From positions 3,224,001-3,288,000 of the forward strand of contig MU004181.1 in NCBI GenBank assembly GCA_010093605.1: DNA of 64,000 bases. The letters are read 5' to 3'. The notes beneath the pieces were generated by a model. The model was not told where the DNA came from and made no database searches. It worked only from the letters and a program-made list of their open reading frames with translations. Positions 1,033 to 37,341 of the stretch are shown piece by piece; position 1 is the stretch's first letter, and every line of letters begins with the position of its first letter. The DNA comes from Lophium mytilinum. Its lineage: Eukaryota. The translations under genes were made by a program, and so were the position numbers.

Positions 1033-2711
1033 TCAGACGTCTTCTGTAAACTTGGAACCCCTTGAGCCATCGTGTGAGGGATGACTCCGACCGAGAGTCC
1101 CTAGAGGCAGTGGTACAGGCGAGTGTGGCGGGCTTGGTCCATCGCGAAATGGTGGGTCCTCGTCAGGATGATGAATGACGGGCGTTCGTGCAGGTGACGG
1201 CATCATTTTCTCCTCTGTAATACCACCCACCGCTGCAGCCCCGACAGGTACGCCCGGTCCGCCATAAAAGCCTTGGCTATCACGGTAGAAAGACGAGCCT
1301 GACAGAGTGGATCTATCAAAGGGAACCGCGTCTGAAGTCATGCCTTCACTGAAAGCTGAGGGAAGTTTTCGTCCTGATATCTTCTGGAACCCTCGCTCTT
1401 GACCAGCGCCACCTGTTTCAGCCGTTCCCTTGGAGGATCCAGAAAAGCGGCTAAGGAAAGACGCTGCGGCGACAGGCATGAAGCTAATTTGTTGCGCCAT
1501 AGGCTGGCCAGCTAGGGCGACGGGTCCAGTGTCCGTGGTGTCGTTCGTCGTGGATAGCTGAATTGCTCCTTGTCGCTTTCGCTTGTATTGACGCAATAGG
1601 AAAAGAGCAATTACGAGCAGAATTGCAAGGCCAGCGAGGCTGCCAATAACGCCACCAACCACCTTGGGAGTCGAAACTGAATTGTTGTCGGAGCTGCCAC
1701 CGTCCCCATTGCCTGCCGCTGCTGTAGGCGTACTGCTGGCAGTTCCTGTGCCACCAGGACCTACACCGCCACCGCCCCCGAAAGCTGACGTTGTAGCTGA
1801 TGAAACTTGCTGCGATGTGGAGCCTGTGGTCTGGGATGATTGGCTAGATGAGTCTTGAGAAGTAGATGTGAGTCGAGATGTGGATAAGATTGTACTATTC
1901 AAGTCGACGGAGAAACTAGTACTGGACGAGGCGCTACCTGAGATATTGTGTTAGTGAATGCTCTTTAAAGCCAACAGAGATATTTACTTGAGTTTCCGCT
2001 AAAGCTGGAGAAATCAGCAACAGACACAACTGTTGAAGAAGAAGTAGAAGAAGAATTAGTGGAGTTGGCGGAGTTTGAAGTGGATATGGTTCCGGGAAGT
2101 GAAGTTGTCGCTGGTGAGAAGGTTAATGGAGGAGACGAGAGGACAACCTGGGAGCCCTGAATTTGGACGGATACTGCCGATCCTGCGGTAGAAGTGAACG
2201 GATATGCCGGGACCGAGGGCAGAGACAGCGAGGGAAATGGGGGCACAGCAGGTACGGTGAGGTCGCTGGGAAAAGCCGGCACCGCGGGAACCGATGGAAT
2301 TACAGCCACTGAAGATAGCGATGGTACAGCCAGAGCCGAAGCAATGGATGCAGCTGAGGTTCCTGTCGAAGTTGGTGTCACTGTTTCTACGCCAACTGTA
2401 TTGCCGTTTTGGTCTACGGTCGCGATAACGTTCACAATGACGGTAAGCTCTGAAGGCAGAGCGAGCTGTCGGCGTTGATGCATCCTCCGATGCATGTCGT
2501 GCATATCGCCAACCGCTCTGTGTCCCTTCATCTCGCGTGAAAGGAAGGATTCACGCTGATGTTCAATGGGCGGCTCTGAACCTTGCTTGGATAGTGGTAT
2601 TTCCAACGCAGCGACGTCGTTCACTTTCGGCAATTTGCCCGCGTCAAAGGCACGGCGGTAGGGCGCCTGTACTCTGGATAGTTTCTGTCGTTTTGAGGGA
2701 TGTTCCATCAC
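1033..2711 (-). CDS. Ser/Thr-rich single-pass membrane protein (Mid2/mucin-like architecture)
   Basis: ORFs 1965..2711 and 1033..1902 are joined by a GT-AG intron at 1938..1987 with a CTAAC branch site. Long S/T tract, TM helix VVGGVIGSLAGLAILLVIALFLL, basic stop-transfer RQYKRKR, cytoplasmic tail ending GSKFTEDV. Confidence 0.75.
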
Positions 2712-4153
2712 ACGATTAAGGATGGCAGCGCAGCAGCGCCAGAGGAGGGGCCGACACTCGCTGGGAGGGCGTGGCGTTGGTTCGAGGCGTGCTCAGCAGC
2801 AGGAGGAACGATTAGGGAGCGTGGTGATTGATAATCGTATCGTATCAATGGCGTGAAAGGAGTGGACGGCTTCGATGAAGGCTTGAGGGGGTCCAGTCGA
2901 TGGATTACAGCATGCGGAGCGCAATACGGAGGGCGTGAAACGAGTGGACGCCAGTAAGACTGGCCAGCGACGGAAGCTATCAATGTTAGAGATAGGCACA
3001 AGAGGATGCGCCGGCTGCACCACAGACACACACCTTGAGCAAGCAATTACGAGGGAGCGTGAGGAGCGTCGTGGGAACAGACGTCGTCGAGCATGTGTGC
3101 GCGGTGTGCAAACAGAGGTAGTGCGGCGGGCAAGAGCATAGGGGGTTCGCAGGCGTCCAGGCAGAGGGAGAGATCGCAGGCCGTCCTCAGACTCCTCTTG
3201 CGAGGGTGGCGTGGGTGATTGTCGACGACACAGCGGGCGCGGTGATGGTGAGGCTGCTCGGGGGAGGTGAGGTGGTGGAGCGACCTTAGATTCCACCTGA
3301 GGCCCACAGGGGGCGTCGGGGCTAACGACAGCCAATTTCGAGGAGGCCGGGGTGCCAGCCGTGACAGGAGCCAGAGGCCGCCCATGTCGTGCAAACAAAC
3401 ACGCCAACGCCTGTGTTGCGTCGCGCGGCCATGTGCGCGTCGGGGCATGCATCGCGGCATCGTCGTCGTCGAGGCGCCTGTATTGCAGTGTGCGGCGGCG
3501 GGTGCTGGCGAGGAATGCCCTTCTCCACATGCTCTATCGTGTGCATTTCGCCCAGCAGTGCACCTGCATGAGACCCTCGAGCCGTTCAGGTGGCCCGCGC
3601 CACCAATTAGAGCGTCCAGGTGGAGCCGAGCTCGGACGTGGGTTTCCAGAAGTCTGCTATTTTTGGCCGTTGGAGCTATCACGGCTATCACCACATCAAG
3701 CTCGGCCCTGTTGGTGTTGTCCCGTCGTCTCACACATCCGCCTCGAATCGATCGATCAACGGCTGGCCGTCCTGATCTGGGACAGCTTGGCTCGTTCCCG
3801 CTTCAAACACTCGCAGAAATACCCGAAGTGGCAAGCCTGAGACCTCCCAAGCTCATCGTACTCGTCCACAGGAGCACTGAAGCCGATACCCAGCCTCCGT
3901 TGGGTGTCGACTGGCAGGCCGTCTAGGTTGACTCGAAGAGCTATTAATTTGTCACCAGTGCTACTTCACGAATCCGAACCACAGAAAATAGGGTCAGTAG
4001 CAGTGGTAGCACGCATACACAAGCCAGGCGAACGCGTACTTTGGGAAACCACTTCTCATATATTCGTGAACATGTCGAAGACTTCAAAGCCTATCCGCCG
4101 CCGTTAGACCATCGAGATCCTCTACTCCCGGCATCTCTTCCCCCAGAGGCGAC

Positions 4154-5043
4154 TCACTTTTCCACCGAAGTCTTCTTGGCGTCCTCCTTCATCCCGGCTT
4201 GCACCCACGCTCGGTTGTCTGCCGCATGCTTTTCCGCCTTCGCCTTGTCCTTGATCAACTCTTTGATCTTGTGCGGATCCGGAACATGCCGTCCCTTCTC
4301 TACGCCTGGCCTCTTCTCCATCCTTTCTTCCCACGCCTTGAGCGCTGGAAATTGGTCGATTTCAATGCCTGCCCACCCCGCTGACGCCACCCACCCGTAG
4401 TTCGCAATGTCCGCGATCGTGCACTTATCCCCGACCAAATACTGTCCTGTAGCTGCCAGCTTCTTGTCCATGACGCCGTACAGTCGTCGCGTCTCGTTTT
4501 GGTATCGCGAGATGCCATACTCGAAGATATCTGGCGCATAGCGAGTAAAGTGATTTGCTTGCCCTTGTACATGGGCGTATTAGCGAATGTTTTGGTAAAT
4601 TTGTCCAGAACTCACAGCTTCTCACCTTGCATAGGACCGACGCCAGCATTCTGGAAGAACAGCCAGTTGTTCATCTCGTAGAACTCGCGAGTGCCCGCCG
4701 GGTACGAGATCTTATAATCTGTATCATAGCGGGACACCAGGTACTGCATTATGCTGCCCGACTCGAAGAGGTTGATTTGCTCGCCGTCGGTAAAGACATC
4801 GGTCAGGGCCGGTATCCGTCCATTGGGATTTATGGCAAGAAACCACGGCTCTTTTTGCGTGTTTTTGCCGATGTCGAGCTTCTGAGCCTTGTAGGGTATG
4901 CTAGAAATACTATGTTCAGTCCGAGTATCTAAGCTTGTATGAGGGTTGGAGCTCACGAACCCTAACTCCTCGAGAGTGATTGAGATCTTGATGCCATTGG
5001 GCGTCTGTGCCGTGTAAAGAGTAATGCTTGGGTCTGACGCCAT
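4154..5043 (-). CDS. Glutathione S-transferase (Ure2p/GstA-like class)
   Basis: TPNGIKISITLEELG, INPNGRIP, FESGSI, GPMQGQANHF and TIADIA motifs; introns at about 4901..4960 and 4565..4626. Confidence 0.93.
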
Positions 5044-5630
5044 GGTGTGAGTAGCAAGCTGAAACAACACAGACCAGAGGATGCTACAGATTTACGTGGC
5101 CGGGGTGCCGCTTTTATATGTCGACGTCAGGTGGGGTGAGCTTTGGGTAAATAGCGTTAAAATGAGGGGATGATTTCAAATAGCTGCGATGGCTTAAGGG
5201 TGATGCTCTCTACAACAATGCTCGCAACAAGCTTATATAGGATTTAGGTAGCAGCATTCTCCTTTAGGGAAACTTGCCATACTAAGCCCCAGTCCCAAGC
5301 CTGTAGATTGGATAGGTAAGCTGCTGGTCCAGATACTGAGTGTATCCGAACCTGCATCTGCCGTAGCGACATATGATGATTACTACTCTGGCCTTACAAG
5401 CCAAATAGGGCAACGCTGCCTGCAGCGGTCCAGCACTGCGCAAGGCTGGCATTCCCCTCCTAAGTTTTGCTTCGTTTTCTTGGGTGACAGGGTGAAGTGA
5501 TGCACGTGACGTGATTTGTCGCCAAGGCGCTAGCGAGAGCGCGCCTTCTTACCTGCAAGCTCGCCGCCCTCGCTTCCTCTTCCTTACGCCTCACTAACAA
5601 CAACGGTCGCACGTCGCCGTCGTCGCAGCC

Positions 5631-7852
5631 ATGGCCTGGAGAAACCAAGGAATCACTGGATCTAACAACATCCCGTTAGGCAACCGACGTAGATTCGGCG
5701 ATGAAGGCGGAACTCCTTCTGACGATGGCGGTTACAACCCGTCCGCTCCTGCGACTGGCCTCACCGAGATGAGCGCAAAGCGTGGCCGCAGCCCTGTGGG
5801 TAAGTCAACACCTCCGAGTCCCTCTTTGTCCGTCGCACTGCTAACTGTCATCTTAGTCGACGGAGACGGCAACCGCCGACGCAAGAGACGCAACCGCTGG
5901 GGAGATACCACGGACAACAAGGCTGCCGGACTGATGGGCCTCCCAACCGCCATCACCGCTAATATGACTACTGAGCAGCTTGACGCCTACGCCCTGAATC
6001 TGCGCATCCAAGAGATCACCCAGAAGCTCAGGATCAGTGACGTGGTTCCCGCCGACGGAGATAGGTACGTTTGTCGTGCATCATCCTCCCTCGAACATGT
6101 ACTGACTGTCGACAGGTCTCCTTCGCCAGCCCCCCAGTACGACAACTTCGGACGTCGCGTGAACACCCGTGAATATCGCTACCGCAAGCGCCTTGAGGAT
6201 GAGCGCCACAAGCTCATAGAGAAGGCCATGAAGGTCATCCCTGACTATCAACCGCCGCAGGACTATAGGCGCCCGACCAAGACGCAAGAGAAAGTCTATG
6301 TCCCGGTCAATGACTATCCAGAGATTAACTTCAGTATGATCACTAACCCCGCTTTTTGATTTTTGACATCTTTTCCTCTCAAATGCCCATCCCGATCTTG
6401 CCTGTCGTATTCTTTCTGAGTCGGCATCGCTCTATCACTAACCCATTCACTCACTCACTTACACGCTTGCCTCAATATTTTTGATAAACAGACACTAACA
6501 TACTTTTCTTTGCTACTAACAGTTGGTCTACTTATCGGCCCTCGTGGCAACACCCTCAAAAAGATGGAATCTGAATCCGGCGCCAAGATCGCCATCCGAG
6601 GCAAAGGCTCCGTAAAGGAAGGAAAAGGTCGTTCTGATGCCGCGCACACCAGCAACCAGGAGGAAGATCTGCATTGCTTGATCATGGCCGATACCGAGGA
6701 CAAAGTCAATAAAGCCAAGAAGCTTATCCACAACGTGATTGAGACGGTAAGTCGGGTACCTCGTCACGCCGACCGTACAACGCTAAACTATAATCAAGGC
6801 TGCATCCATCCCGGAAGGTCAGAACGAGCTAAAGCGCAACCAGCTTCGTGAGCTTGCTGCACTGAACGGTACCCTGCGTGACGACGAGAATCAGGCCTGT
6901 CAAAATTGTGGAGAAATCGGCCATCGCAAATACGACTGCCCACAGGCGAAGAACTTCACCGCTAACGTTATCTGCCGTGTCTGTGGTAATGCAGGCCATA
7001 TGGCTCGAGATTGCCCAGATCGTCAGCGAGGTGCCAACTGGCGCAACGATGACAGAGGTGGACCCAACGATCGTCCTGCTCCTAGCAGAATCGGTAATGT
7101 ATCAGCCATAGACAACGATATGAACGCGCTCATGCAAGAGTTAGGAGGCGGTAATATCCCGCAGCATCGCATCGAATCTGGTGCAGGTTCCTATGACAAA
7201 TCTAACTCTGGCTTTCACGACAAACCTGGCTCTGGTGCCTACGACAAGTCTGGCCCGGGTGGTTACGACAAATCTGGTTCGGGTAGATACGACAATGGCC
7301 CGCCTAGCAACGGAAACTATGCGGGTGACGACAACCTCAAGCCCTGGCAGCGTGGCCCAACCGGTGCTGCGGCTCCCTGGGCGCAGCAGCGCGGCCGAGA
7401 TGACCGAGACGGTGGTCCTTCAGGCGCACCCGCTCCTTGGGCCTCCAGCGGTGGACGTGGTGGAGACACCTACGGCTATGGTAACTACAATGCGGCTCCT
7501 CAAGGTCCCCCAGGTAGCGCGACTCCTTGGCAGCAACCGGCTCCTCCTCCACCCCCAGGAAATGGATATGGAGGCTACGGCGCGGCTTCGTACAATCAGC
7601 AAGCTCCCGGATATGGCCCAGCCCCTGGATTGGGTGCTCCCCCGGGCATGGCACCACCGCCTGGACTCGAAGCTCTGTTCCAGAACTATGGTAGTGCGAC
7701 GAGCCCGCCTCCTCCACCGCCGCCCGGAGATGCCCCTCCCCCCGTGAGTTCAAACATTCGTTGTCTTTGTCCGTACCCCCTCCACCAGTACTGGCTGACA
7801 AAGCTTCAAGCCTCCTCCCTCAGACTTGCCCCCTCCACCGCCACCGGCTTAG
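5631..7852 (+). CDS. MSL5: Branchpoint-bridging protein BBP/Msl5/SF1 (KH-QUA2, two CCHC zinc knuckles, Pro-rich tail)
   Basis: RRKRRNRW (ULM), [29 protein letters not shown] (KH GxxG), CQNCGEIGH and CRVCGNAGH knuckles. Introns 5800..5856, 6065..6115, 6334..6522, 6747..6798, 7744..7810; stop TAG at 7850-7852. Confidence 0.96.
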
Positions 7853-8252
7853 GTCGGCGACATTCATCAGTCTAGGGAGCGCTTCTCAATCAGGGATGGC
7901 TTCACATAGTGGGCTCAACGGTAGATGCAGTGGTTGTGGTAATGTGCTCTGTGCTTTCCCCACTTCCAGGTTCCTTTTGCGAAAGTCAACACTTTCGTTT
8001 ACTCCCCTCTCTTGGCATCAAGTTGTATGCAGTTTGACTTCTGCAATGTCTTGGAGGTCTCTTTCTTTCGATTCACCGAGGCAATGGTTTGCTCTCCAGC
8101 CAGTCACTGTACTTTAGTGCAAAATTTTGCATGGGTCGAATTGGCTGTATGTTGATCTTCTTTGCTTGAGTGAGTGAAATGTAACTCTGATGATACTGAA
8201 CCAAGGTCGGCGCTGAAGTGGGCGTGTGGAACAATGAACCATCCTTAGCTAT

Positions 8253-16395: not shown

Positions 16396-16866
16396 AATAT
16401 GTCCTGATGAATTGAGAGCTCAGAAAGTGAGATATCGAGGAAGTTTTGCTTGGGGTTCACCAACGGAAGTGTCAATTTCCCCAGGTTTGGAATGTATCAT
16501 AGGAACGAAAGCTCTACATGAACGTAGTTTTGTTTGATTTAGCTCATTCCCAAGCATAGTATAGTTCGGCAATATGACGCGAAAAAGAACTTAGTGGGCT
16601 ATTCGTGGTTGAAGTCCGCGTGACAAGCTCCACCCTCGGGCGTTTAGCCGGCCCTTCATCTCCACCTGCACTCTCCCCTGGACACCAGAAAGTCGCCGTC
16701 GCAGCTCCGCTTTTCTCTCCACGGAGATGGAAATGTGCTCTTCTACTCCCTGTCACGACAATTATCCTCTATTTTACGCTTACCTATCATTAATTCATAC
16801 TTCAAATCTTCCTGCTCATTGAAAGAGCGATTCCAAATACCCAACGAGAAGCTTCATTAGCGTATC

Positions 16867-19118
16867 ATGTCTTCAGAAGCATCATCCTCCCTTGGCAAGA
16901 GAAAGCGGGTAAGGCGAGCTGCTCGTCCTTGCGATGCCTGCCGACAGCGCAAAACTCGATGTATTATGGAAGATGGCCCTACTTGTACCGTCTGCCAGTT
17001 TCGAGATTCTTCCTGCACTTTTGACGCAGCCCCTCCCGAGCGGAATACATATACCAAGACACCAGACATAGGTCATGTGCCCACAAATGGAAGTTCTGTC
17101 TCGGCCTATCCCCCCTCTAGTACGAGTCCATCGCATGCTCATTCCCACCGCTCGTTGAACGGTGCGGAAGCTGAGCAGTTGCTGAGTAGTGATACGACTT
17201 CAATCTCTCCGTACGATCAAAGACGCCGAGTTACTAGGCAGACTGATGAGGGGCCTTTGACTCAGTCTCTAGGCCTGGTTTCTTTCAGGTTTGCAGAGCT
17301 ATATGGACTAACAAGTGACATGGAGCCAATACTGATGGTGAGTACCGTAAAGACGTTTTGTTCGCAAGGAACGGAGCACTCAGTTGGACCTAACCTATCT
17401 GACTACGATTAGTCCCAGCCGACTATTTGTATAGCTTGATAGAATCCCAGCGAAGAAGATCTGACAATGTACAGAGACACCGGCCCTACGATCCCATTAG
17501 CCATGAATATCGACTTCAGACGCACAGCATTCGTCGCGTCCTGGATCACGATGAGGGCCTGGAGTACCCCGTTACATTCCACTTGGCCACTGATGAGAAA
17601 GCTATTGGCTTCTCACCCGATTTTAGCGATGTGGATGCTATCGAAGCGGAGGTGCGTCCACATGGCATGAGACTGCTCAAGCTGTTCTGGAGGATCGTTC
17701 AACCTTCTTACCCCATCATCTATAAGAAAGGCTTTATGGAGAGTTATACTATATCATACAGAGAGATATCTGCATCTCTTCTTGGCGCAGTCTATCTCAA
17801 CGCGATCAGTTGGTGGTCCTACGACTCGGAACTTTCCAGGTGGCCTGCGCCAGACACGGCGAAACTCAGAAAGCTTACACTTGATGCGACCCAGAGTTCA
17901 TTGCATCGGCCAAAACTATCGTCAATCGAAGCCATATTGTTGCTCTTACAGTGCAAACCTGAGGATCCACTCAACCCGGACCACACGTTCTCATGGGGAT
18001 TGACGTCGCAGGCGCTTGGTGTTGGAGAAGCTATTGGCCTACATCTCGATGCGTCATTCTGGTCAATTCCAGATTGGGAACGATCTCTCAGGAAGCGACT
18101 TTCGTGGGCTCTCTATATGCAGGATAAGTGGACCGCGCTAGCGTACGGACGACCTTCGCATATATCAGACGACGACTGGGACGTCACAGACCTTGCGCAT
18201 TCGGCTTTCCTCGACTGCGAAGATGCCAATCTAGGAGCGCCAAGTAGCTTCTCCGATTCCACATATTCATCAGGCGAAGTCCAATTTCTCATGATGGCCG
18301 AGCTTACCCAATTCCTGAGTACAGTATTGAGGAGCTTTTTTACACGCAGAGCGAGCTCAAATCAAGACACTAGCAATCTCTATCACAAATCGCTTCCCGT
18401 TATCGAAGCCATCAGATTATGGAAGCTCAGAATACCGCCCTCGTTGAGCATGGAAGCTCGTACATCCCGCCAGCTATGCCCGAGCGGCTATCTGTACTTC
18501 TCTTATCATGGCCTGATGATAACGCTGCTTCGACGTCTTGTTCGCTCCACAGCTTTGGCGCCCTTGTGTACCGATCAAATAGTTGTTGGAAATATTCGCC
18601 AATTGGCCTTTGATACGGCAGTGGAAGCAATGACCTTCGTCTCAACATTGAGACCTGACCATCTGGAAGCCTTTTGGTATTTTACTTCACCATTCCTGTT
18701 CTCACTACTCGGCTCCTTTATCACTCTCCTCCTCGTTACGTCTGTCTCGGAGCAGGAAAGGGAATACTGGAGAGAAAAGCTTCACTCGTATCTTTGGGTT
18801 CTCCGCACTATGAGTAAAGGGTGTGAACCAATCCGCTACGCAGTAAATCGCCTAGGTAGGGCCTGTGTCCCAAAACCACCAACACTCGAAAGCTAACGAC
18901 GATCAGAGGGTGCAATTCTGCGCGGCCTAGAACATGCATTAGCAGTAAACGTAGATTCGCCCGTTAACCTCAGAAGCACCCCGTTACTAGTTCCGCAGAC
19001 TGATCAGGACTTTGGTATGTCGAGTTTTGGGGATTGGGATCTTTCAGGTATGGATCTCGGCGCCTTTGACTGGCTCAGCAACGTGGACGTTCAGCAGAGT
19101 TTGAACACACTGCAATGA
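16867..19118 (+). CDS. Zn(II)2Cys6 transcription factor with fungal-specific TF domain
   Basis: CDACRQRKTRC...CTVC....SSC cluster; IGLH..., RKRLSWALYMQDKW..LAYGRP; introns 17338..17474 and about 18856..18906; stop TGA at 19116-19118. Confidence 0.93.
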
Positions 19119-19261: not shown

Positions 19262-20815
19262 CTAATTTCCGAGCCTCCCATGTTTTTTGTAATAAAGCCG
19301 TATTTGCTTGGGCTGGAAGGTTCCGTCTTCAACGAAGAATCCTAACTCTTTCGTCTCCGAGCTATTCAATCTAGGTGGGATCCTATAGGAGATAGACTTT
19401 CCACCAACAAACAGCTCCATTGTGTCATTCTCCACAACGAGACGGATCGTCTCCTCTAATCTGACAGAACTGTGCCTGGCAAGCTCTGGACCATCCACAT
19501 TCTTAGGGAGATATAGCTCATACTGGTCGGCCCAGAAGTCGTCTAGCGGCGGCAGGTCTGTGAGAAGCGACACGGCATATGATCCGTCAGCGGCGGGCTC
19601 GAAGCGAATACGGTGTCCTCTCAAATCGTCGTCCGTTCGAAGAAGGACACCGAATGACAGGGCATCATGGTGCGACACACTGAACTCCAGAACATAGCTT
19701 TGCACCGATTTTTGCAGTATGGGCAAGTATGTCGCTAACGTTTGGCCAATGGATCGCAGATTCAGCTCTTCAGCAACACGATTGTTCTCATTCCCTTCTA
19801 GAAGTGAAAACTTGTTGTGTAGAACTTCCTCGACCGGGGAGATTTCCAGGGATCCATCGACGCGTGCAGATACTTGTCTGGGCGCAGCTAAGCTTCCTCC
19901 CCAGAGCCATCTGCTATCTTTCTCATTGAAGTCTGCAATCCATCCAAAGAAGATACGCTTGGAACTATCCCCGGCTTTCTGACACGACTTTGCTGCATAC
20001 CATCTTCTTGCATCAAACCTTCCACCTGACCCATCTCGTGGAGTACGGAATGGCCCCCTCGGCGAGTCCGCTATTCGGTACACAGTCCCCGGATTAGGTG
20101 CGGAGAACCGAGAGTACACGAGGTACCACTTCCCATTTGGCAGTGTGAAAAGCTCTGGACATTCGGGACACATCATATCGTTGGGCGCGTACAACGGCGC
20201 TGGCTCTACAGACCATTCTTCTAGATCTGCAGAGGTCAGCAATGCAATACAACCCCGTGTCCAATGCGGGCCACTAGAGAGACGGGTGGCGACTAGCATC
20301 CAGTACTGGCCAGCCTCCTCGTTGAAGAAGACGTAAGCGTCGCGGAAGTCGATGTCTTCGAATGCGGCCAGATTCAATGGTGGAGAGATGATGCGAATTG
20401 GCTCCGAATCTGCATTGAAGCTAGTCCCGTGTTGATCGGAGGAGCGAGCGTGCAAGATGGCTTGCTTCCCGCCTTGGGATAAATTGTATCCCGTATAGAA
20501 GATGTGCAGTGTGCCATCAGGTCCTAAGACTGCTGAACCAGTCCAGGCGCCATCTGCATCAGGCGCTGATTCCGAGGAGCTTGGAGAGAGAACAGGAAGG
20601 GGATCTCGCATCCAGCTGACAAGATCTTTGGAACGAAGCCGAGACCAGCTTGAACGTAGCCTCGGCGGGTGATGTACAGTGTTTGGGGGAGTGCTCAAGT
20701 GGAATATGTGGTAAGTGTCGTCTATCAATACCGGTATTGCGTCTGCAGCTGCCTGAGACGCCGATGGACGGCTATAGCTAGCTGCTTCGGATGGAGGGGA
20801 ATCAAAGGCGGGCAT
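19262..20815 (-). CDS. Intracellular glycoside hydrolase family 32 (beta-fructofuranosidase-like), intronless
   Basis: Beta-propeller motifs ADAIP..YHIFH (nucleophile Asp), WTGS, DFRDAY (RDP-like), PECP (acid/base), YAAKS; no signal peptide. Confidence 0.85.
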   Translation of the reverse strand: MPAFDSPPSEAASYSRPSASQAAADAIPVLIDDTYHIFHLSTPPNTVHHPPRLRSSWSRLRSKDLVSWMRDPLPVLSPSSSESAPDADGAWTGSAVLGPDGTLHIFYTGYNLSQGGKQAILHARSSDQHGTSFNADSEPIRIISPPLNLAAFEDIDFRDAYVFFNEEAGQYWMLVATRLSSGPHWTRGCIALLTSADLEEWSVEPAPLYAPNDMMCPECPELFTLPNGKWYLVYSRFSAPNPGTVYRIADSPRGPFRTPRDGSGGRFDARRWYAAKSCQKAGDSSKRIFFGWIADFNEKDSRWLWGGSLAAPRQVSARVDGSLEISPVEEVLHNKFSLLEGNENNRVAEELNLRSIGQTLATYLPILQKSVQSYVLEFSVSHHDALSFGVLLRTDDDLRGHRIRFEPAADGSYAVSLLTDLPPLDDFWADQYELYLPKNVDGPELARHSSVRLEETIRLVVENDTMELFVGGKSISYRIPPRLNSSETKELGFFVEDGTFQPKQIRLYYKKHGRLGN

Positions 20816-20963
20816 TTTAGGAGTTGGAAAGATTCAAAGTTGACTGGGTCAGCCGACTTTGAGAAGCAAGAAGCGAATGAATATAGTAAAGCTGGAAGAC
20901 AGTGTGCACCGTATTCTGGCGGCATCTTCTCCATGGCCGTACGGCATCTGATGAGTGCTAGCT

Positions 20964-20980: not shown

Positions 20981-21343
20981 CGACTCGTCAAAGTGGGCCC
21001 CTTTCGCCGCGTTCTCGTTAGAAAGAGGTGATGGTAAAGCAGTCTCGGATAGACCGAGTCAGCAATTCGTAGGGGATTTCTGAAAACAACTCATGTTGCC
21101 CCGTCCCCGCAAGGCTGTTCCGACCCTAGCGTTTTCTCCATCATGCTCACCCCCGCTCTACTTGCCAGCGGCCGGCCGGCCGGCAGCCATGAGGTGCAGG
21201 GTTGAATGTGCCGAATCTGGGGTGCCGATCTTGCGAAATGCAGTCCGTCTCGTTCTCAGGTATTTACCTATATCTACCATGGAGCGATTGACAGCTCCTC
21301 GTCAGTCTTCAGACTGCCTTTCGTCTTCGTCAAAGTCATCTAG

Positions 21344-23755
21344 ATGGCCCTCATCAAGTATCCATACGCCTGGCTTTTCTGTGGCTTCGCTGCTCTCGGA
21401 GCATGCTTATATGGCTATGACGGTGTCTACTTTAATGGCGTATCTGCTCTAGGTATGTTGCTATTGCGTTTCACCAACCTTTGATACTTGGCTCACATCA
21501 AGTTAGACGTTTTTATTCGGAATTTTGGAGACAAAAAGGATGGAACCTACGAGATTACCCCGTCGGCACTCTCGGTGATGACGAGCATGATCAACGTGGG
21601 TGAACTGGTTGGATCATTGAGTGCCGCTCCTATCAACGATTATCTCGGCCGAAAAGGAGCCATGTTGATTGCTAGTATCACCATCAGCGTTGGTGTCATT
21701 ATGCAGCTTTCTACCCAATCATCTCGCGACTTGATCACTGGAGGCCGAGTAGTTGTTGGATTAGGACAATCACCACAGCAAGCAATCACGGTAGCAAACT
21801 TGGGTCCATTCCTGTATATTAGCTAGCCTTCCACCTAATATCAGACGCTACGGCCTGCAATCAACAGGTTATGAGCCCGGCTTCAACGCTGCCCTAAGCC
21901 TCAGGTCGTCCGCCCGTTCCTGCAGGGTGTCACTAGCAGATCCTTTCCACGTCCACCATCATCAGCATGCTTTCCTAGATGCCTTCTTTAATGCATTCCT
22001 AGATGCACATCCTAGATGCATATCAGCCATCGCCATTGTATACCGCCATCGCCACAGGATACCAACCATCACCACAAGATGTCAGCCATCATCACAGGTT
22101 GTCAGCCATCATCGATATCGGGCGCTTCTTTCACTCACCACCATCCCGATCCTGTCAGCATCGCCACGGGATGCCGTTCCTCTCAGCCATCGCAAGCGAC
22201 TTCTATCGTCCATTCATCACTGGATGCTCTCCATCAAGGAGGTTTCCAACCATTATTGCCCGCTGTTAAGATTGAGGGAGGATGTTGGATTAGGACAATC
22301 ACCACAGCAAGCAATCACGGTAGCAAACTTGGGTCCATTCCTGTATATTAGCTAGCCTTCCACCTAATATCAGACGCTACGGCCTGCAATCAACAGTAGT
22401 ACTTGGGTATGGCGTAGGCGTATTTTCTTCTACTTCGCCGCTATACATTGCTGTAAGTCTTCCTATCCTTACTTACTTAGCTATAACTGCTAATCTGATG
22501 TAGGAGATTGCGCCTACTGCCCTTCGTGGACAGCTGCTCATGTGCTGGCAACTCACTCTTTCCGTGTCTCAAATCATAGCCGCAGCTATCAACCGTGGCA
22601 TCAAAGACAACCAAACAACCTTCGCGTACCGATTTCCCATAGGATTCCAGCTGCTTTTTCCCCTACTCGTTCTCCTTTTCCTCTGGTGGGTCCCAGAATC
22701 ACCTCGTTGGCTGCTTCGAAAGGGGCGCTCTGAGCAGGCCGTTCGGTCACTCAGCCTCGTTCATCGCGAGGACAAGATGTACCACGCTCAAGCCGATATC
22801 GACGCCCTCCAACTTGACCTTGATCACGAGGCTGAGCTTAACTCTCAGAGCTCGTGGCTAGACCTCGTTCGGGATCCTGTAGAGCGGAGGAAATTAGTAT
22901 ACTCGGCCGGCGCACTCATTGCCCAGCAGATCAACGGCATCCAATGGTTCTATTACTTCGGAACAGTGTTTTCTAAGGCTATTGGGTTGAGTGACCCATT
23001 TCTCATGACACTCATAGTGTTCATCATCCAGGTCGTCGTCGTTTTTGCTGCTGTTCTCTGCGCGAATCGCATTCCTAGGCGTCCGTTGCTGCTGATTACC
23101 ACCGGCATTATGACAATATCCATCTTCATAGTCGGATGTTTAGGCATTCCTGGAGGCGAGGTCTCGCCAACGTTTGGCAAGGTCATCATCAGCTTCGTCA
23201 TCATCGAGATCACGGCTTTCAACTTTGCTTGGGGTCCCTTGGGCTGGACCATTGCTTCCGAGATGGCAGTTGGCCGGAACCGGAACAAGATATACGCCAT
23301 CGCCGTTGCTTGCTTCTGGGTAAGCTCTTGCTCAAGTAACGACCTTACCGTTTGCAAAAGACTGACCACAACCCACGCAGATAACCGTGTGGGTCACAGT
23401 ATTCACGCTTCCGTATCTTTACTACTCCGCAAATCTCGGTCCAAAGACTGGTTTCATCTACACTGGACTTTGTTTTGTCAGTTTGGCGTACGTCTGGTTC
23501 TGTGTTGGTGAGGTGACTGGGCGGACAATGGAAGAGATCAACGGCTTCTTCATGGATGTAAGTATTAGACCTTACTCGCCCTTCATGAATCCAGTAGCCG
23601 TTCAAGAATTCTAATCACCTCTGCAGGGCATTCCTGCGCGCAAATGGCGGGACCAACCTCGATTAGATGACATTCCAAGATCGCACATGAGCGACGACGT
23701 CGATGTCTCAGACGTCAGACTCGACGAAAAGAACATTGGCACCAAACAAGGGTAA
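21344..23755 (+). pseudogene. MFS sugar porter interrupted by an LTR mini-element (probably a null allele)
   Basis: YGYD, INDYLGRK, PESPRWL, QQINGI, FAWGPLGW and EVTGRTMEEI motifs. Removing 21754..22395 plus one GTAGT restores GGRVVLGYGVGVFSSTSPLYIAEIAPTALRG; as it stands the frame stops at TAG 21824-21826. Confidence 0.9.
21754..22395 (+). mobile_element. Non-autonomous Copia-type LTR retroelement in miniature (TRIM), 642 bp
   Basis: Identical 113-bp LTRs at 21754..21866 and 22283..22395 (TG...CA, TGTTG/CAACA ends); PBS GGTTATGAGCCC at 21867..21878; purine tract GAGGGAGGA before the 3' LTR; TSD GTAGT at 21749-53 and 22396-400. Confidence 0.96.
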
Positions 23756-31400: not shown

Positions 31401-34400
31401 CCGCGGGTCATGCTCTCGTGTACCGGCTGCAGACCGACGACAGCCAGGCGGATCGACGGCAGTGGTGGATGAGATGAGGACTGCTGATTGCTACGATGTG
31501 GCGTTGTAGTGTCTCGACTGTCCAGGCATCCCCCATCGAGTTAGAGCTTGGAGACAGGCGGTGGGGTACCGTGTCAAAATGGGGGCATCAAGGCTCCGGC
31601 TCGTAGTCTCGCCACATTCATAACGCGTACGGAGAGCATGGGTAGTAGTTGGAGGCCGTGTCCGCAGCCTCGAAACCTTGATACCGCAAACGACTGAGCC
31701 GGGAAGTGTGGTGTGCGTGGGCGCTGGGCCGGCATCGACCTGCCATCAAGCTGCCACATTTCGCACAAGTCTGACCATCGTGGACGCGTCTGGCTCGAAA
31801 AGAGAGTGCAGACGTCAATCAAGCGACGAAGTGTGATGCATCCATGACTCCCGCAGCGCCGCACGAGGACCAGAGGCCACCACCAACCACCAACCACCTT
31901 CATTGCGACTTGGCCCTGAGGAGCTGCTTGCCGCAGGAGAAACACGCTAGGAGAGCCATCCCAGAGCCGGCAAGCTGCTCGACGATGCAGTTCCTTGTCG
32001 CTAGCAAGCAGCATGCATCCACACGCCCATCAATTCACCCAGCACACCAGGGCGCGTCCAAGAGGCGCGGTACGTCTCAGGCGCCGAGCCCTGGAGGCAA
32101 ACTAATAATCCTTCCAGATCCCGACTAGCGCGTCAGACTTCTTCAACGCATGAGGCCGGTGCTGGGCTCCGGTGACATCGCATGTAAATAAAGAAAGTTG
32201 TTGGGTGGCCGTCGCCCGGCCGTCTAGCAAATAGATCCAGCGCGGCACTCGTATCACGCTGGCTAGAACCCACGTCGAGGCTCCATTCGTCCTTCCTTCC
32301 GACCCATGGTTGCTAAAGATCAAGGACGTTGCGGGGGCGATCGTGACGGGCTATGTATCGTATGTAGACTCTGATTTACGCTCTGGCCAAGACATCGACT
32401 GGTGCCCACCACTTACTGCCAGACGCGAGCATCCAGTAATGGCGAAAATCATGCCCCGAGCAGGGTCGTATCACACCAGTGCGCGCCTCTCGTTGTCTGG
32501 CGCCTCGAACACCCGTTTGGCGGTAGTGCATGGGTCCGTGGTGCGCTGAAGGGGATGCATCGTGGAGGCATCAGAACTCGCCAGTGCCAGCCATCCTCGC
32601 AGCCCACCCGGTGCGCCAGTGTTCCCCCAGCCAATCACCGTGTGCAGTGAATCGTGGCGGTCACTGCACCACTAACCAGACTGCTGTCCATCTACTCGGC
32701 GGAGTCGGCAAAGGCTATCAGGCTCCGCAAAACGTAAAGTGGCAGTTCAACGTATGCCGAGAAGCCCTAGGGAGCCATTAGGTGGCCAGAACTAACGTTT
32801 ATCAAAGAACAACAGCATTCCAGAGGACCAGCGGTGCCGAGCAAGCCCACACACATATTAGTGTGTACGTCAAGGGTAGGAAGTTTGAAATCAGAACCAC
32901 GGCTGCGGACTGCCACTTTTTCTCCAAGGGAGCCTAGTCTCCCTTACCTCGTCTTTAGCTTTGTTTCCACTTTCCACCACCACATCCGGCCATCATTCGC
33001 CAAGGGAGCGGGGCGAGAACAAGCGTGGAAGCGTCAGTCCGTGGGCCGCCAGTTCGCCCTCCATGTCCACGCAACCAGCAAACTTCTGACCGATCGCGAA
33101 TTGCTTTTCGAGTCGGCATCTGCTTGCATTCCGCTTGGCACTCTCCAGATTGTGCGAGAATTAGTTAGGAGTGCCCCGGCTAGCCCGGCCCAGCACCACC
33201 TCGCCACGGGACCGTAATGCATTCTCCAGTCGCGAAACCCTGGCACTCCCAGCAGGCAACGCAACAGCCGAATGACACCGGGGTACGCAGACTCGGGGCC
33301 GGGCGCGGAGAGCAGACGGAAGGCGATGCGCAGGTGCGTGTTTCGCAGGGGGCGACAAGGCGGTCCTGCAGTGCAGATTGCTTCAACTCAACATGGAACG
33401 GCACACCAGCGCGCTGCTGTCCGGGGCCGGTTGGCGGGCGGAAAGCGTGATTGGGGCGGCGGGACAAGCTCACAGGATGCGAACAATTTGGAGAGAGGAG
33501 CATTCGATCAGCAGGCGTCAGGGGGCGCGCTCGGAAGAGGAGCTTTTGGGTAAGACAGCAATTAGGCCAGCGAGCCACAGCGGCCGGCTTCGTATCGAGC
33601 TCCAGTCCTCTACGCTGCACAGGACAGAGTCGAGGCGTGCAGGGAGTGAGAGTGCAGTCGCCGGGCTAGAAATCAAACACGGCATGGCGGAATGATGCAC
33701 CTGCAAAGGCCCTCTGAAAGCGAGCCATTCCAGGCCGGCTGGGGCGATTGTTCGCTGGAGGGGACGCTACTCAGACCTCAGGCTCTCAGCGCATCACGAC
33801 GACTGGCGAGTGTGACGATCGCAGGCTGACGCAGCGGCCGAGGGTTCGGCGGTGCGAGAGTCTTCCAAGTTGTTGACGAAGCAGACTGAACCCCAGACTC
33901 GCAAGCCATGCCATACGCAACCCGGATGTCGCAGGCAGCGTGACTGTTTGTGGACGGGTTCGTGGCGGAGTGTCATGGTGGTGAGGCCACGTCTTTTCTC
34001 GAGGCCGTCCTCCCAGGCCTTGCTCCCAGGCCGTCCACGGTATGCCTCCCACACAGGTCCACCGCTCGTGACTCGCCGCGGCGGGCCTGGTGTTCGACCT
34101 CAGCGACGCGACCAGCAACGGCAAAGCAGAGGCCGTCGACGCAGCCAGAAAGGAACATGGCACAGCGCCAATCACAGCGGCGGGCGGCGTGGCACTCGCA
34201 GCTCGCGGGCTACGGCGCCTTCGGGATAGCGCAGTCAGACGCCATCACCCATGGGCCGTGGAGAGGCGGCCAGGGTGAGGTGAGCGTGCAGGCCCGTGGG
34301 CTTGTGGGCTCGCTCAGGCCGTCCAAGCGGTTCAGACAGACCAGGAGTCGGCCGGGCGTGGCATGGCTTCGTTCGTGTGGGTGAGGAAGTGCGCGGCAGG

Positions 34401-35387
34401 AGACTCGCCGAGGAGGGCGGTGGAGCTGGTGTTGGACCCAATGCCACCAATGCCACCCATCCATGCTGATATGCTGATGAGGCAGCGTGGTGATGCGGCT
34501 AGCAACGCCGGCTGGGTGCCAATTCGTGCTCGATTGCTGCGCGGTCCGCGTCTGTTCGTGTGTGAGCATCTGCGAGGTCTGTGGGTTGTCTGTGTGTGCC
34601 CGGCAAGTGCTGGCTTCGCTTTCACCTGCGCCTCAGCTTCCCACGCTTGGAGTCTGCTCCCAGCTCCCTGCGGCCGCAATCCTGCTCCACGGCTGGCGGC
34701 GTTGCTCTTGTCCCATAATTATCACGGCGGGTCGCTCGGCCCTGGTCGGTGCTGTAGCTTTGCAGGCCTCCCCGCCGGCGCCAGGGCGCGTTGATGTCAG
34801 AGGGACGCTGCTTCTCATTCTGGCCGCTGCGGCGCTGAAGCCCTGCCTGGAACCTTCCGACTGCCAGTCCATCGACCGTCACCACGCGGAGCGAGCAACA
34901 TGTTTTATCAAAACCCTCCCGCCCTATGCCCGAGAGCAGCAAGCCAACCACAGCCCGCCGAGAGCCCCAGCGTCTTTGAGCGCTCTGATTGCTTCTCTTT
35001 ATCCTACCGTGCACGCCCTCATCCACCACCCCCATCGCCGTCGCCAACCTCAACCTCACCCGCTGCCCCTTCCGCCTCCTCACTTGCCCGTCCCAGCGCT
35101 CCCTCGCCGGTGCTCGCTGTTGACATACCTCGAAACATACCAGAACACCAGCGGCCATATCCAGCCAGCGCCTCCTTGCGTCGCCCCCGAGCACCGCACT
35201 CGCCCGCTGCCCAGAGCCGTCTGTGGCATTCACTCGTTCTGGCAATGCCGTGAAGGCGACGCCGCCTTCTTTTTCCTTCTGCCACGTCCCTTGGAGTAGA
35301 CACCGCGCGACCGTGGACCCTGGGTGCTTGTTACCAGCCAGCAGACCTCACTGAATCATCGGCCCTGGCCCTCGCCCCGCCGCTCTC

Positions 35388-37341
35388 ATGCTCGAGCTAC
35401 AACTGCCCAACCCAATGCCTCATGCCGTGGGCTCCGACCGCCCCTTCGACTCCTACTCTCACTCCTCCAAACTGGAACACAGCAGACCACCGCTCCCCAG
35501 GCCTATCTCGCGAGCAGACCTTCTCTATCACACCAGCGTATCGCGGGCCCCGCCAACTCCACCTACAGACATGTCGAGCTCAGCTTTGGGGCCAGTTTCT
35601 GTATATCGGCACAGCAGCATGGGACCAGACTTTGGATCCAACCGCCAGATGAATGCATCTGCTTCGCAGTATTCGGTGCCAGCCAACTCGACTTACCAGC
35701 TGCCAACCTACAACACCTCGAGAGCGGCCGCGGCTCCCTCGAGTCCCATTGTTCAGGGAGCTCCGGCGTCCTCGCAGTCTGTCCACCGCCGGAAAATCTC
35801 GAACAATACGATTGCTCCAAATCTGAAGACACCCCCCACTATCAGCACTCCCCAGGAGGGCCTGCCGCAAGTTGCTGCCGAGGTGCGTCTTTCAGTTTCC
35901 CGGAAAGAAACCCCACTGACATTCGCAGATAACATGCCTCTTCTGGTTCGAGAATTCATCGACCCTGAAGCGCGTTCTAGAACCTGGTTCACCGCGGCCC
36001 ATAGGCCCTCTAGTTCCAGACGCTACCCCAACAACTGGATTTCGGAAATGGGTCACCACGATCTTGACTACTACTCAAGTTGCGCAGAACGTCATCTTAC
36101 TGGCCTTGATGTTCATTTACCGGCTCAAACAGATCAACCCCAGCGTCAAGGGCAAGCTAGGCAGCGAGTACAGGCTTCTCACTGTAGCACTGATGCTGGG
36201 CAACAAATTCCTCGACGACAACACGTACACCAACAAGACGTGGGCTGACGTTTCTGGTATCTCGGTGCTCGAAGTCCACATCATGGAAGTCGAATTCCTC
36301 AGCAACATGAGATATAGCCTTTTCACCTCTGAGAAGGAGTGGCTAGATTGGCACGTCACCTTGGGCAAATTCGGTACCTTCTTCGACCATGCATCCCGTA
36401 TGCCAACGCAGAATGTTCTCCCGAGTCCAATCGGCCCGCCCACTCCATCATTACAGCTACCACCAAATCTTCTACCATCTCCGCCTACCTCGCTTCATAC
36501 ATCGCCACCGAATCTTTCCAACTACTCACCCAACAGGCAGCCAGTACTTTCAAATACCCCGATGCTTTATCCCCAGGCAACGTCGACTGCTGTGTCACCA
36601 ATCGGTCCTCTCCCGGAACTTGGACCATTGAACCACAGGAAGCGGAGCTACGACGAGTCACTGGAGCCACCTGCGAAAAGACCGGCCCATACATACAGCC
36701 AACCACCGATAAACAACGGTCTGAGTATTCCATCACTCCATCCGCCTGTCGGGAGGCCTTTCCAGAACCACCAAAACTTGCCACGTCTACCACCTCTACC
36801 GAGTTTGTCGATTCCGCCTCCCCAGCCTGGTCGTACACCTGTGCAAATGAGCAATTTGCCCCAATTGCCAATGCCAGGAAACAGGTCTATGGCGATGGTT
36901 TATCCGTCCGTCAGCCAGTGGGGTCAACCTTACGCGACTCCAGCATCTTCTGCTCCGGGACACTCGGCGATGCATACTCCTATCGATAGATCACGACAAG
37001 TCAGTCCGTACCCCGTTGGATCTACCAATTCGTCTCCCGTCAGCGCAACTTTCCAGGCTGGAAACCAGAATCGCCTATCCCCCAACTACTTTCTTCAGCA
37101 AAGGCAGTCGCCTTATCGGCCTGTCCGGAGCGTTACTACTCTTCTGGTTCCTCCACCGTCTGGCTCGATGCATATGCCGCAAAGACCTATTCCAATGGAT
37201 CAAATGCAATATCAACCATTGGGTAGGCCGATGAATGAGCGGAGAGTCGGGCCACTACCTTACATGCATCATGAAGCGTGGCCGGAAACGAATCAATTCA
37301 ACCAGTTGCCCGGCTTGGTTCAGCCTGTGTTCCGTCGCTAG
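35388..37341 (+). CDS. Pcl/Clg1-type cyclin-like protein with Pro-rich C-terminus
   Basis: AAE|ITCLFWFE across intron 35883..35928; cyclin box LLALMFIYRLK..GSEYRLLTVALMLGNKFLDDNTYTNKTW..ME.EFL; start codon uncertain. Confidence 0.88.

Follow-up and report, generated by a model that had tools for sequence, protein, structure and literature searches.

A 642-bp long terminal repeat (LTR) element lies within a coding exon of a sugar-porter gene of Lophium mytilinum, in a 64,000-nt stretch of contig MU004181.1 (assembly GCA_010093605.1, positions 3,224,001–3,288,000, forward strand; hereafter the window, in whose own coordinates all positions are given). The element has the architecture of a TRIM (terminal-repeat retrotransposon in miniature), it belongs to a multi-copy family, and its removal in silico restores an intact porter. 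Taking the evidence together, we consider it very probable that this TRIM was mobilised in trans by a Ty5-like Copia element and that its insertion into the second exon of the porter caused loss of function.

The element spans 21754–22395 on the plus strand, and its tips, target-site duplications (TSDs), primer-binding site (PBS) as well as its polypurine tract (PPT) are all readable in the sequence. Two LTRs of 113 bp (21754–21866 and 22283–22395) are 100% identical, start with TG and end with CA, and carry TGTTG..CAACA tips; a repeat finder reports 114 nt because the next base is a G after both copies. The flanking duplication GTAGT occupies 21749–21753 and 22396–22400. The 416-bp internal region between the LTRs (21867–22282) is C-rich and stop-poor on the plus strand, opens right after the 5′ LTR with GGTTATGAGCCC(GG), the PBS (21867–21880), and closes right before the 3′ LTR with the purine run GAGGGAGGA of the PPT (22268–22282; 13 of 15 bases are purines, and the last nine, 22274–22282, are all purine). 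A tandem-repeat search additionally located about 4.5 copies of a 12/13-nt unit (21967–22024) and about 4.6 copies of a 20-nt unit (22020–22110) in the interior. The combination of a perfect 113-nt repeat, matching flanking 5-mers and a 12-nt tRNA-antisense word at the LTR edge is far beyond chance. TRIMs are described as protein-less elements shorter than 1000 bp with LTRs, a PBS and a PPT (PMC10886601), and every structural feature of the class — small size, TG..CA LTRs, PBS, PPT, absence of an encoded protein and a TSD — is present here. The initial annotation of this DNA, made from the letters alone, had proposed an intact, TRIM-type non-autonomous LTR element, and its anatomy bears out that proposal, TSD, LTRs, PBS, interior and PPT included, down to the coordinates and sizes that were given. 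No further copy occurs in the window, where the best non-self blastn match was 16 nt long (E=1.4).

The interrupted gene (21344–23614, plus strand) encodes a major facilitator superfamily (MFS) sugar porter and was delimited by its PF00083 matches, by splicing in silico and by alignment to orthologues. Its exons lie at 21344–21452, at 21507–21753 joined to 22401–22452, at 22504–23319 and at 23381–23614, such that the element splits the second. PF00083 (Sugar_tr) flanks the element, with profile positions 25–116 matched in 21485–21823 and positions 129–399 in 22504–23508, and the profile positions missing between both matches come from 22401–22452. When 21754–22400 was excised (647 bp, comprising the 642-bp element and one TSD copy) and the three introns of 54, 51 and 61 nt were spliced (donors GTA.., GTAAGT and GTAAGC; acceptors ..AG), a 485-aa open frame resulted, with canonical splice sites and neither stop nor frameshift; the joint across intron 1 is visible in a public-run contig. 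The restored porter is 73.5–78.5% identical to six orthologues over 480–485 aligned residues, shows no gap at the insertion point, and retains 278 of the 292 columns that are invariant among the six (14 differ). The exon that was said to be hit, the perfect repair upon removal and the undecayed remainder of the gene thus all stand. With the element in place, the reading frame instead continues from the exon into the 5′ LTR and meets an in-frame TAG at 21824–21826, giving a 142-aa product of 118 host and 24 LTR-derived residues. Such a product would comprise about three of the twelve helices, and the allele is predicted to be a loss-of-function allele.

Public sequencing runs contain the insertion too. 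Seven runs cover part of the stretch, three of them (X5–X7) in small shares, and contigs of the other four (X1–X4) were compared with 21000–23200; X1 and X2 derive from one sample, which may be the source of the assembly, while X3 differs in sample, study and organism label, and its designation as RNA is only a guess. Contigs of X1/X2 span 21000–21783 and 22369–23200 with 0 mismatches, reaching 30 and 27 nt into the LTRs (in X2, 21000–21783 is covered by two overlapping records, 21000–21200 and 21171–21783). The interior is represented by exact pieces at 21840–22095 and 22076–22300, again with 0 mismatches, at depths of 159 and 210 compared to 173–174 in the flanks. In X3, a 4856-nt contig skips a 54-nt GT..AG intron and reaches 21783, 30 nt into the LTR, with 0 mismatches; it independently backs the 5′ junction and has the form expected of a spliced transcript. 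The initial annotation had named reads that fail to back the insertion as grounds for abandoning it, and contigs of two studies cross its junctions without a mismatch. Elsewhere in X3, 22406–22923 is uncovered and 22930–23149 has a depth of 4.3 versus 45 upstream; contig depth cannot rank parts of one gene, and this pattern was not used as evidence of premature termination. X4, a metagenome, contributes a 151-nt contig, about 85–90% alike, that joins 21754 to 22402 and skips 647 nt. It represents an orthologue that lacks the interruption and comes from a different organism, and it tells little more than the protein alignment already does.

The same runs reveal a family. Summed contig depths in X1 reach 2448–3941 in LTR bins and 429–1175 in interior bins, with 173 in the flanks, and 70 contigs of X1 and 82 of X2 matched the stretch, 49 and 58 of which, respectively, fit both LTRs. 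Loose ends with unrelated flanks number 24 among those listed, plus 86 more, and contigs of 12,885 nt and 4,453 nt hold LTR copies with 14–15 mismatches. Sibling contigs follow the order of the short interior, with segments of 69, 74, 86, 163 or 200 nt missing or replaced; among the listed variants, one departs from it by 8 mismatches plus 11 gaps over about 160 nt, and another by 21 mismatches over about 237 nt. Judged from contigs with variant interiors and many LTR flanks rather than from whole sibling copies with their own TSDs, the family would number its LTRs in the tens and its short interiors at a few. The element is thus no artefact, and it is unlikely to be an isolated product of deletion.

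As a separate observation, LTR bins in X3 (21754–21887) sum to 1784–4866, compared to 45 for the transporter exons, and a 3561-nt X3 contig with a depth of 362 begins within an LTR copy and goes on with sequence of no relation to the element. Abundant transcripts from other parts of the genome may include copies of the LTR or be driven by them.

None of the three element open reading frames (ORFs) matched a Pfam family, even at E≤10, and neither Pfam nor homologue searches found a trace of gag or pol. The plus strand of the interior (33% C, 19.5% G) carries 19 stops in its three frames versus 47 in the three minus frames; all three plus frames are simultaneously open for about 250 nt, and one remains open for 186 codons (21795–22352). 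A frame of this length was equalled by 6 of 2000 mononucleotide shuffles, which take no account of the stop-free tandem repeats. The 186-aa read-through frame had no match at E≤0.001 among 137 word-sharing candidates of near length, and a single one among 1.84 billion representatives, the tetratricopeptide-repeat (TPR) protein P0241 (E=1.1e-4), which we dismissed as a chance, repeat-inflated hit in which one 32-aa stretch is matched four times across the PPT/LTR junction. A coding remnant was likewise rejected, given that all three plus frames are open together and have no homologue. We read the scarcity of stops as the product of C-rich composition and of stop-free tandem repeats, which would explain part of it, and not of coding. 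A small-RNA module in the LTR was also considered and rejected: ARAGORN returned no tRNA, and the sole Rfam match at E≤1 was sR28 (E=0.7, 13.6 bits against a gathering score of 39). Lacking a tRNA- or 5S-like module, the element is therefore not of the Helenus or Cassandra type.

With no protein to classify, the element's affinity has to be read from its cis signals. The 12-mer at 21867–21878 recurs letter for letter as the 3′ end of oPA1732, an oligonucleotide that PMC11230868 describes as a specific probe for the initiator Met-tRNA of yeast. It follows that the PBS is antisense to the initiator tRNA at an internal position and not at its 3′ end. This complementarity covers the 12 nt shared with the probe, with the following GG outside it, and the tRNA compared is that of yeast and not of the host. 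Ty5 is described as priming from a 3′ end created by cleavage in the anticodon loop of the initiator tRNA (PMC5371799), and TGTTG/CAACA tips together with an initiator half-tRNA PBS are named as Ty5 hallmarks (bioRxiv 10.1101/2025.04.25.647736); over its 12 nt, the PBS is of this half-tRNA type. According to PMC10886601, priming from truncated, anticodon-loop tRNAs is confined to Copia lineages, such priming from the initiator tRNA is described for fungal Copia elements, and 5-bp TSDs are made by fungal Copia elements and by the TRIMs depending on them. PBS type and LTR tips thus agree with the Copia affinity suggested initially, and point to the Ty5-like side of that group.

We propose that enzymes acting in trans reverse-transcribed the element's RNA and inserted the copy, their most likely source being a Ty5-like Ty1/Copia element whose primer is the anticodon stem-loop of initiator tRNA-Met. 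On this view, integration generated the 5-bp duplication within the second exon of a sugar:H+ porter that has a GH32 fructofuranosidase as its conserved neighbour, and transcripts of the filled allele would read from the exon into the LTR and encounter a stop after 24 foreign codons, yielding the 142-aa product. Several points weigh against this explanation. Reverse transcriptase, integrase, RNase H and gag families are all absent from the 127 window ORFs of at least 110 aa, and the pairing with the primer was assessed over the 12 nt of the yeast probe. Copy number can be read only roughly from summed contig depths, and the exact interior of this copy is at single-copy depth with no identical sibling or master evident, which weakens the case for current activity. 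For the porter, the one sizeable difference from the six orthologues is that the restored protein ends about 22 residues earlier than most of them, whether through natural variation of the tail or through a subtle second lesion, and loss of transport is a prediction from the truncation. Patterns built from the LTR ends with the PBS, and from the LTR ends by themselves, found no loci in metagenome contigs and none in viral contigs.

Three alternatives concern the nature of the element. An assembly artefact or chimeric join has practically no chance of being correct: nothing favours it except that unitigs break at the LTR repeat, whereas contigs of two studies run across the junctions without a mismatch, exact pieces of single-copy depth account for the interior, and misassembly would not produce the perfect geometry of TSD, PBS and PPT. 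The element might instead be a one-off internal-deletion remnant of a full-length Copia, integrated in deleted form or deleted in place, and not a member of a propagating short family. The single-copy depth of the exact interior in X1 and X2 (159 and 210 versus 173) would fit such an origin, as would the failure to find a partner, an identical sibling or a second copy in the 64-kb window. We nevertheless judge it improbable, as the same runs contain several diverged contigs, each with a depth near that of a single copy, that match the short interior collinearly along 160–240 nt, their differences are point changes and missing or replaced segments of 69–200 nt as would arise in a family of short elements, and the interior retains no trace of gag or pol. 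That a Ty3/Gypsy element and not a Copia mobilises the element is more doubtful still, and we rate it very improbable. Gypsy elements too have 5-bp TSDs and TG..CA ends, and the element offers no coding sequence for classification, but priming by 3′-truncated tRNAs is, in the account of PMC10886601, reported for Copia lineages only, and both LTR tips and PBS fit the description of Ty5.

A fourth alternative, that the insertion is old and fixed in the species, making the porter a young pseudogene of all isolates rather than a recent, strain-specific allele, leaves the TRIM interpretation intact and concerns its timing; we regard it as a substantial possibility, though not the one we favour. At assumed rates of 1e-8 and 1e-9 substitutions per site and year, the lack of any difference between the 113-bp LTRs limits the age only to about 1.3 and 13 million years, respectively. 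The description of the element as very recent is therefore too strong: LTR identity sets no tighter limit, the exact interior is single-copy, the listed sibling copies have diverged, and nothing points to a very recent burst. The proposal of a strain-specific allele fares no better, since the 5′ junction is filled in both data sets with the locus (X1/X2 and X3), neither of which showed an empty allele from the same species. Fixation is further favoured by the 14 of 292 otherwise invariant residues that are altered and by the shorter C-terminal tail. On the other side, the two data sets may represent one strain, and the 485 codons without stop or frameshift and the canonical splice sites are those of an intact gene, a state that argues against great age. 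As for the initial suggestion that LTRs this short may escape efficient repeat-induced point mutation (RIP), differences among listed siblings showed no CpA bias, with 7 of 15 C>T changes followed by A (background, 79 of 200) and 1 of 6 G>A changes preceded by T, a small sample limited to the best-supported listed variant sites.

The porter belongs to a small cluster. Upstream of it and divergent from it lies a single-exon gene for a GH32 beta-fructofuranosidase-like enzyme (19265–20833, minus strand), and beyond this a gene for a Zn2Cys6/fungal-specific transcription factor identified by Pfam (16861–18893, plus strand), so that the initial description of an interrupted cluster transporter was apt. 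Among the matches listed, the GH32 and porter orthologues bear consecutive locus tags in 11 further genomes, all of ascomycetes from the Dothideomycetes and Sordariomycetes (Diplodia intermedia, Stylonectria, two Aureobasidium, Elsinoe, Kalmusia, two Fusarium, Tolypocladium and two Sporothrix), and the pair is thus a conserved unit. Together with the Zn2Cys6 gene, the locus looks like a conserved unit for sucrose or fructan uptake and hydrolysis. By eye, the GH32 N-terminus shows no obvious signal peptide; the enzyme is probably intracellular, and the porter would be expected to import its substrate. The nearest relatives of the GH32 protein and of the transporter exon are from Botryosphaeriaceae, at 60% and 82–83% identity, respectively.

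Two other regions of the window deserve mention. The sole zinc knuckle among the window's ORFs belongs to the gene for splicing factor 1/branch-point-binding protein (SF1/BBP), recognisable as SF1-HH, KH and CCHC zinc-knuckle ORFs in series at 5598–7872 (plus strand), and is not a gag knuckle. Positions 32001–36000 are the GC-richest part of the window (61%, compared to 49–55% elsewhere) and contain, on both strands, many overlapping ORFs of at least 110 aa that lack Pfam matches; this region lies upstream of an ORF with a cyclin domain (35920–37338).

Collectively, these results describe a clean fungal TRIM in which every cis signal is readable, at a time when ascomycete TRIMs are mostly pipeline labels and seldom dissected. 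They leave retroelement biology as it is known unchanged, the kind being already known in fungi. The locus also provides what appears to be a natural null allele of a transporter beside a probably intracellular GH32 enzyme, and if empty-site isolates exist, a filled/empty pair would directly test import by the conserved GH32–transporter pair. A bolder reading, which we consider rather unlikely though worth stating, is that of a TRIM family, specific to this ascomycete lineage and active at present, that primes from a half-tRNA in the manner of Ty5, has pol II-type LTRs of great abundance in what looks like an RNA data set, has no identical master and perhaps no LTR-sharing partner, and generates segregating knock-outs; if so, alleles such as the loss of this fructan/sucrose-cluster transporter would be segregating. 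Were the family still mobile, it could serve conveniently as a marker and as a mutagen in a lineage of which few members have been sampled.

Among known systems, plant TRIMs, SMARTs and Cassandra share the architecture, size class and trans-mobilisation described for such elements but belong to another kingdom (PMC10886601), and Cassandra differs further in that its LTRs are described as 5S-derived (PMC10886601). Closer in host, the transposable element library of Zymoseptoria tritici, also a dothideomycete, is reported to include one manually curated TRIM of low copy number (PMC10652580, PMC12612061), compared here by description and not by sequence. Helenus elements, with 113 families reported in Pucciniales (rust) fungi and further occurrences in several agaric fungi (Kojima 2024, PMC10886601), resemble the element in their fungal form (TRIMp3) by a length below 1000 bp, a PBS and a PPT, 5-bp TSDs and a PBS like that of Copia elements primed by tRNA anticodon loops, initiator tRNA-Met among them. 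As described there, however, Helenus LTRs contain a tRNA-derived pol III promoter, whereas the LTR of the element has no tRNA- or 5S-like match, which separates it from TRIMp3 and would make it a canonical ‘TRIMp2’. These rust and agaric hosts are moreover basidiomycetes, while the host here is an ascomycete.

Ty5 of Saccharomyces and its relatives share the LTR tips TGTTG..CAACA and the 5-bp TSD (PMC5371799; bioRxiv 10.1101/2025.04.25.647736). Unlike Ty5, which is autonomous and encodes gag-pol, the element is 642 bp long and encodes nothing. The length of Ty5 is about 5 kb. In the dothideomycete Cochliobolus heterostrophus, seven TRIM copies related to Copia-1_CH are reported (PMC4112212), and the resemblance, drawn from their description alone, extends to an ascomycete host, short non-autonomous LTR elements tied to Copia, TG..CA ends and the 5-bp target sites of Copia relatives. 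Those copies were annotated by a pipeline through LTR similarity to a known Copia, in contrast to the present element, whose Copia link is drawn from its PBS type and LTR tips. The suggestion of a possibly undescribed fungal TRIM consequently does not hold as a novelty of kind, as Copia-related TRIMs have been reported in Cochliobolus, Zymoseptoria, rust and agaric fungi. The family itself, set against these known candidates by description only, is nonetheless probably undescribed because its host lineage is sparsely sampled, with relatives reaching at most 60% identity for the GH32 protein and at most 83% for the transporter exon.

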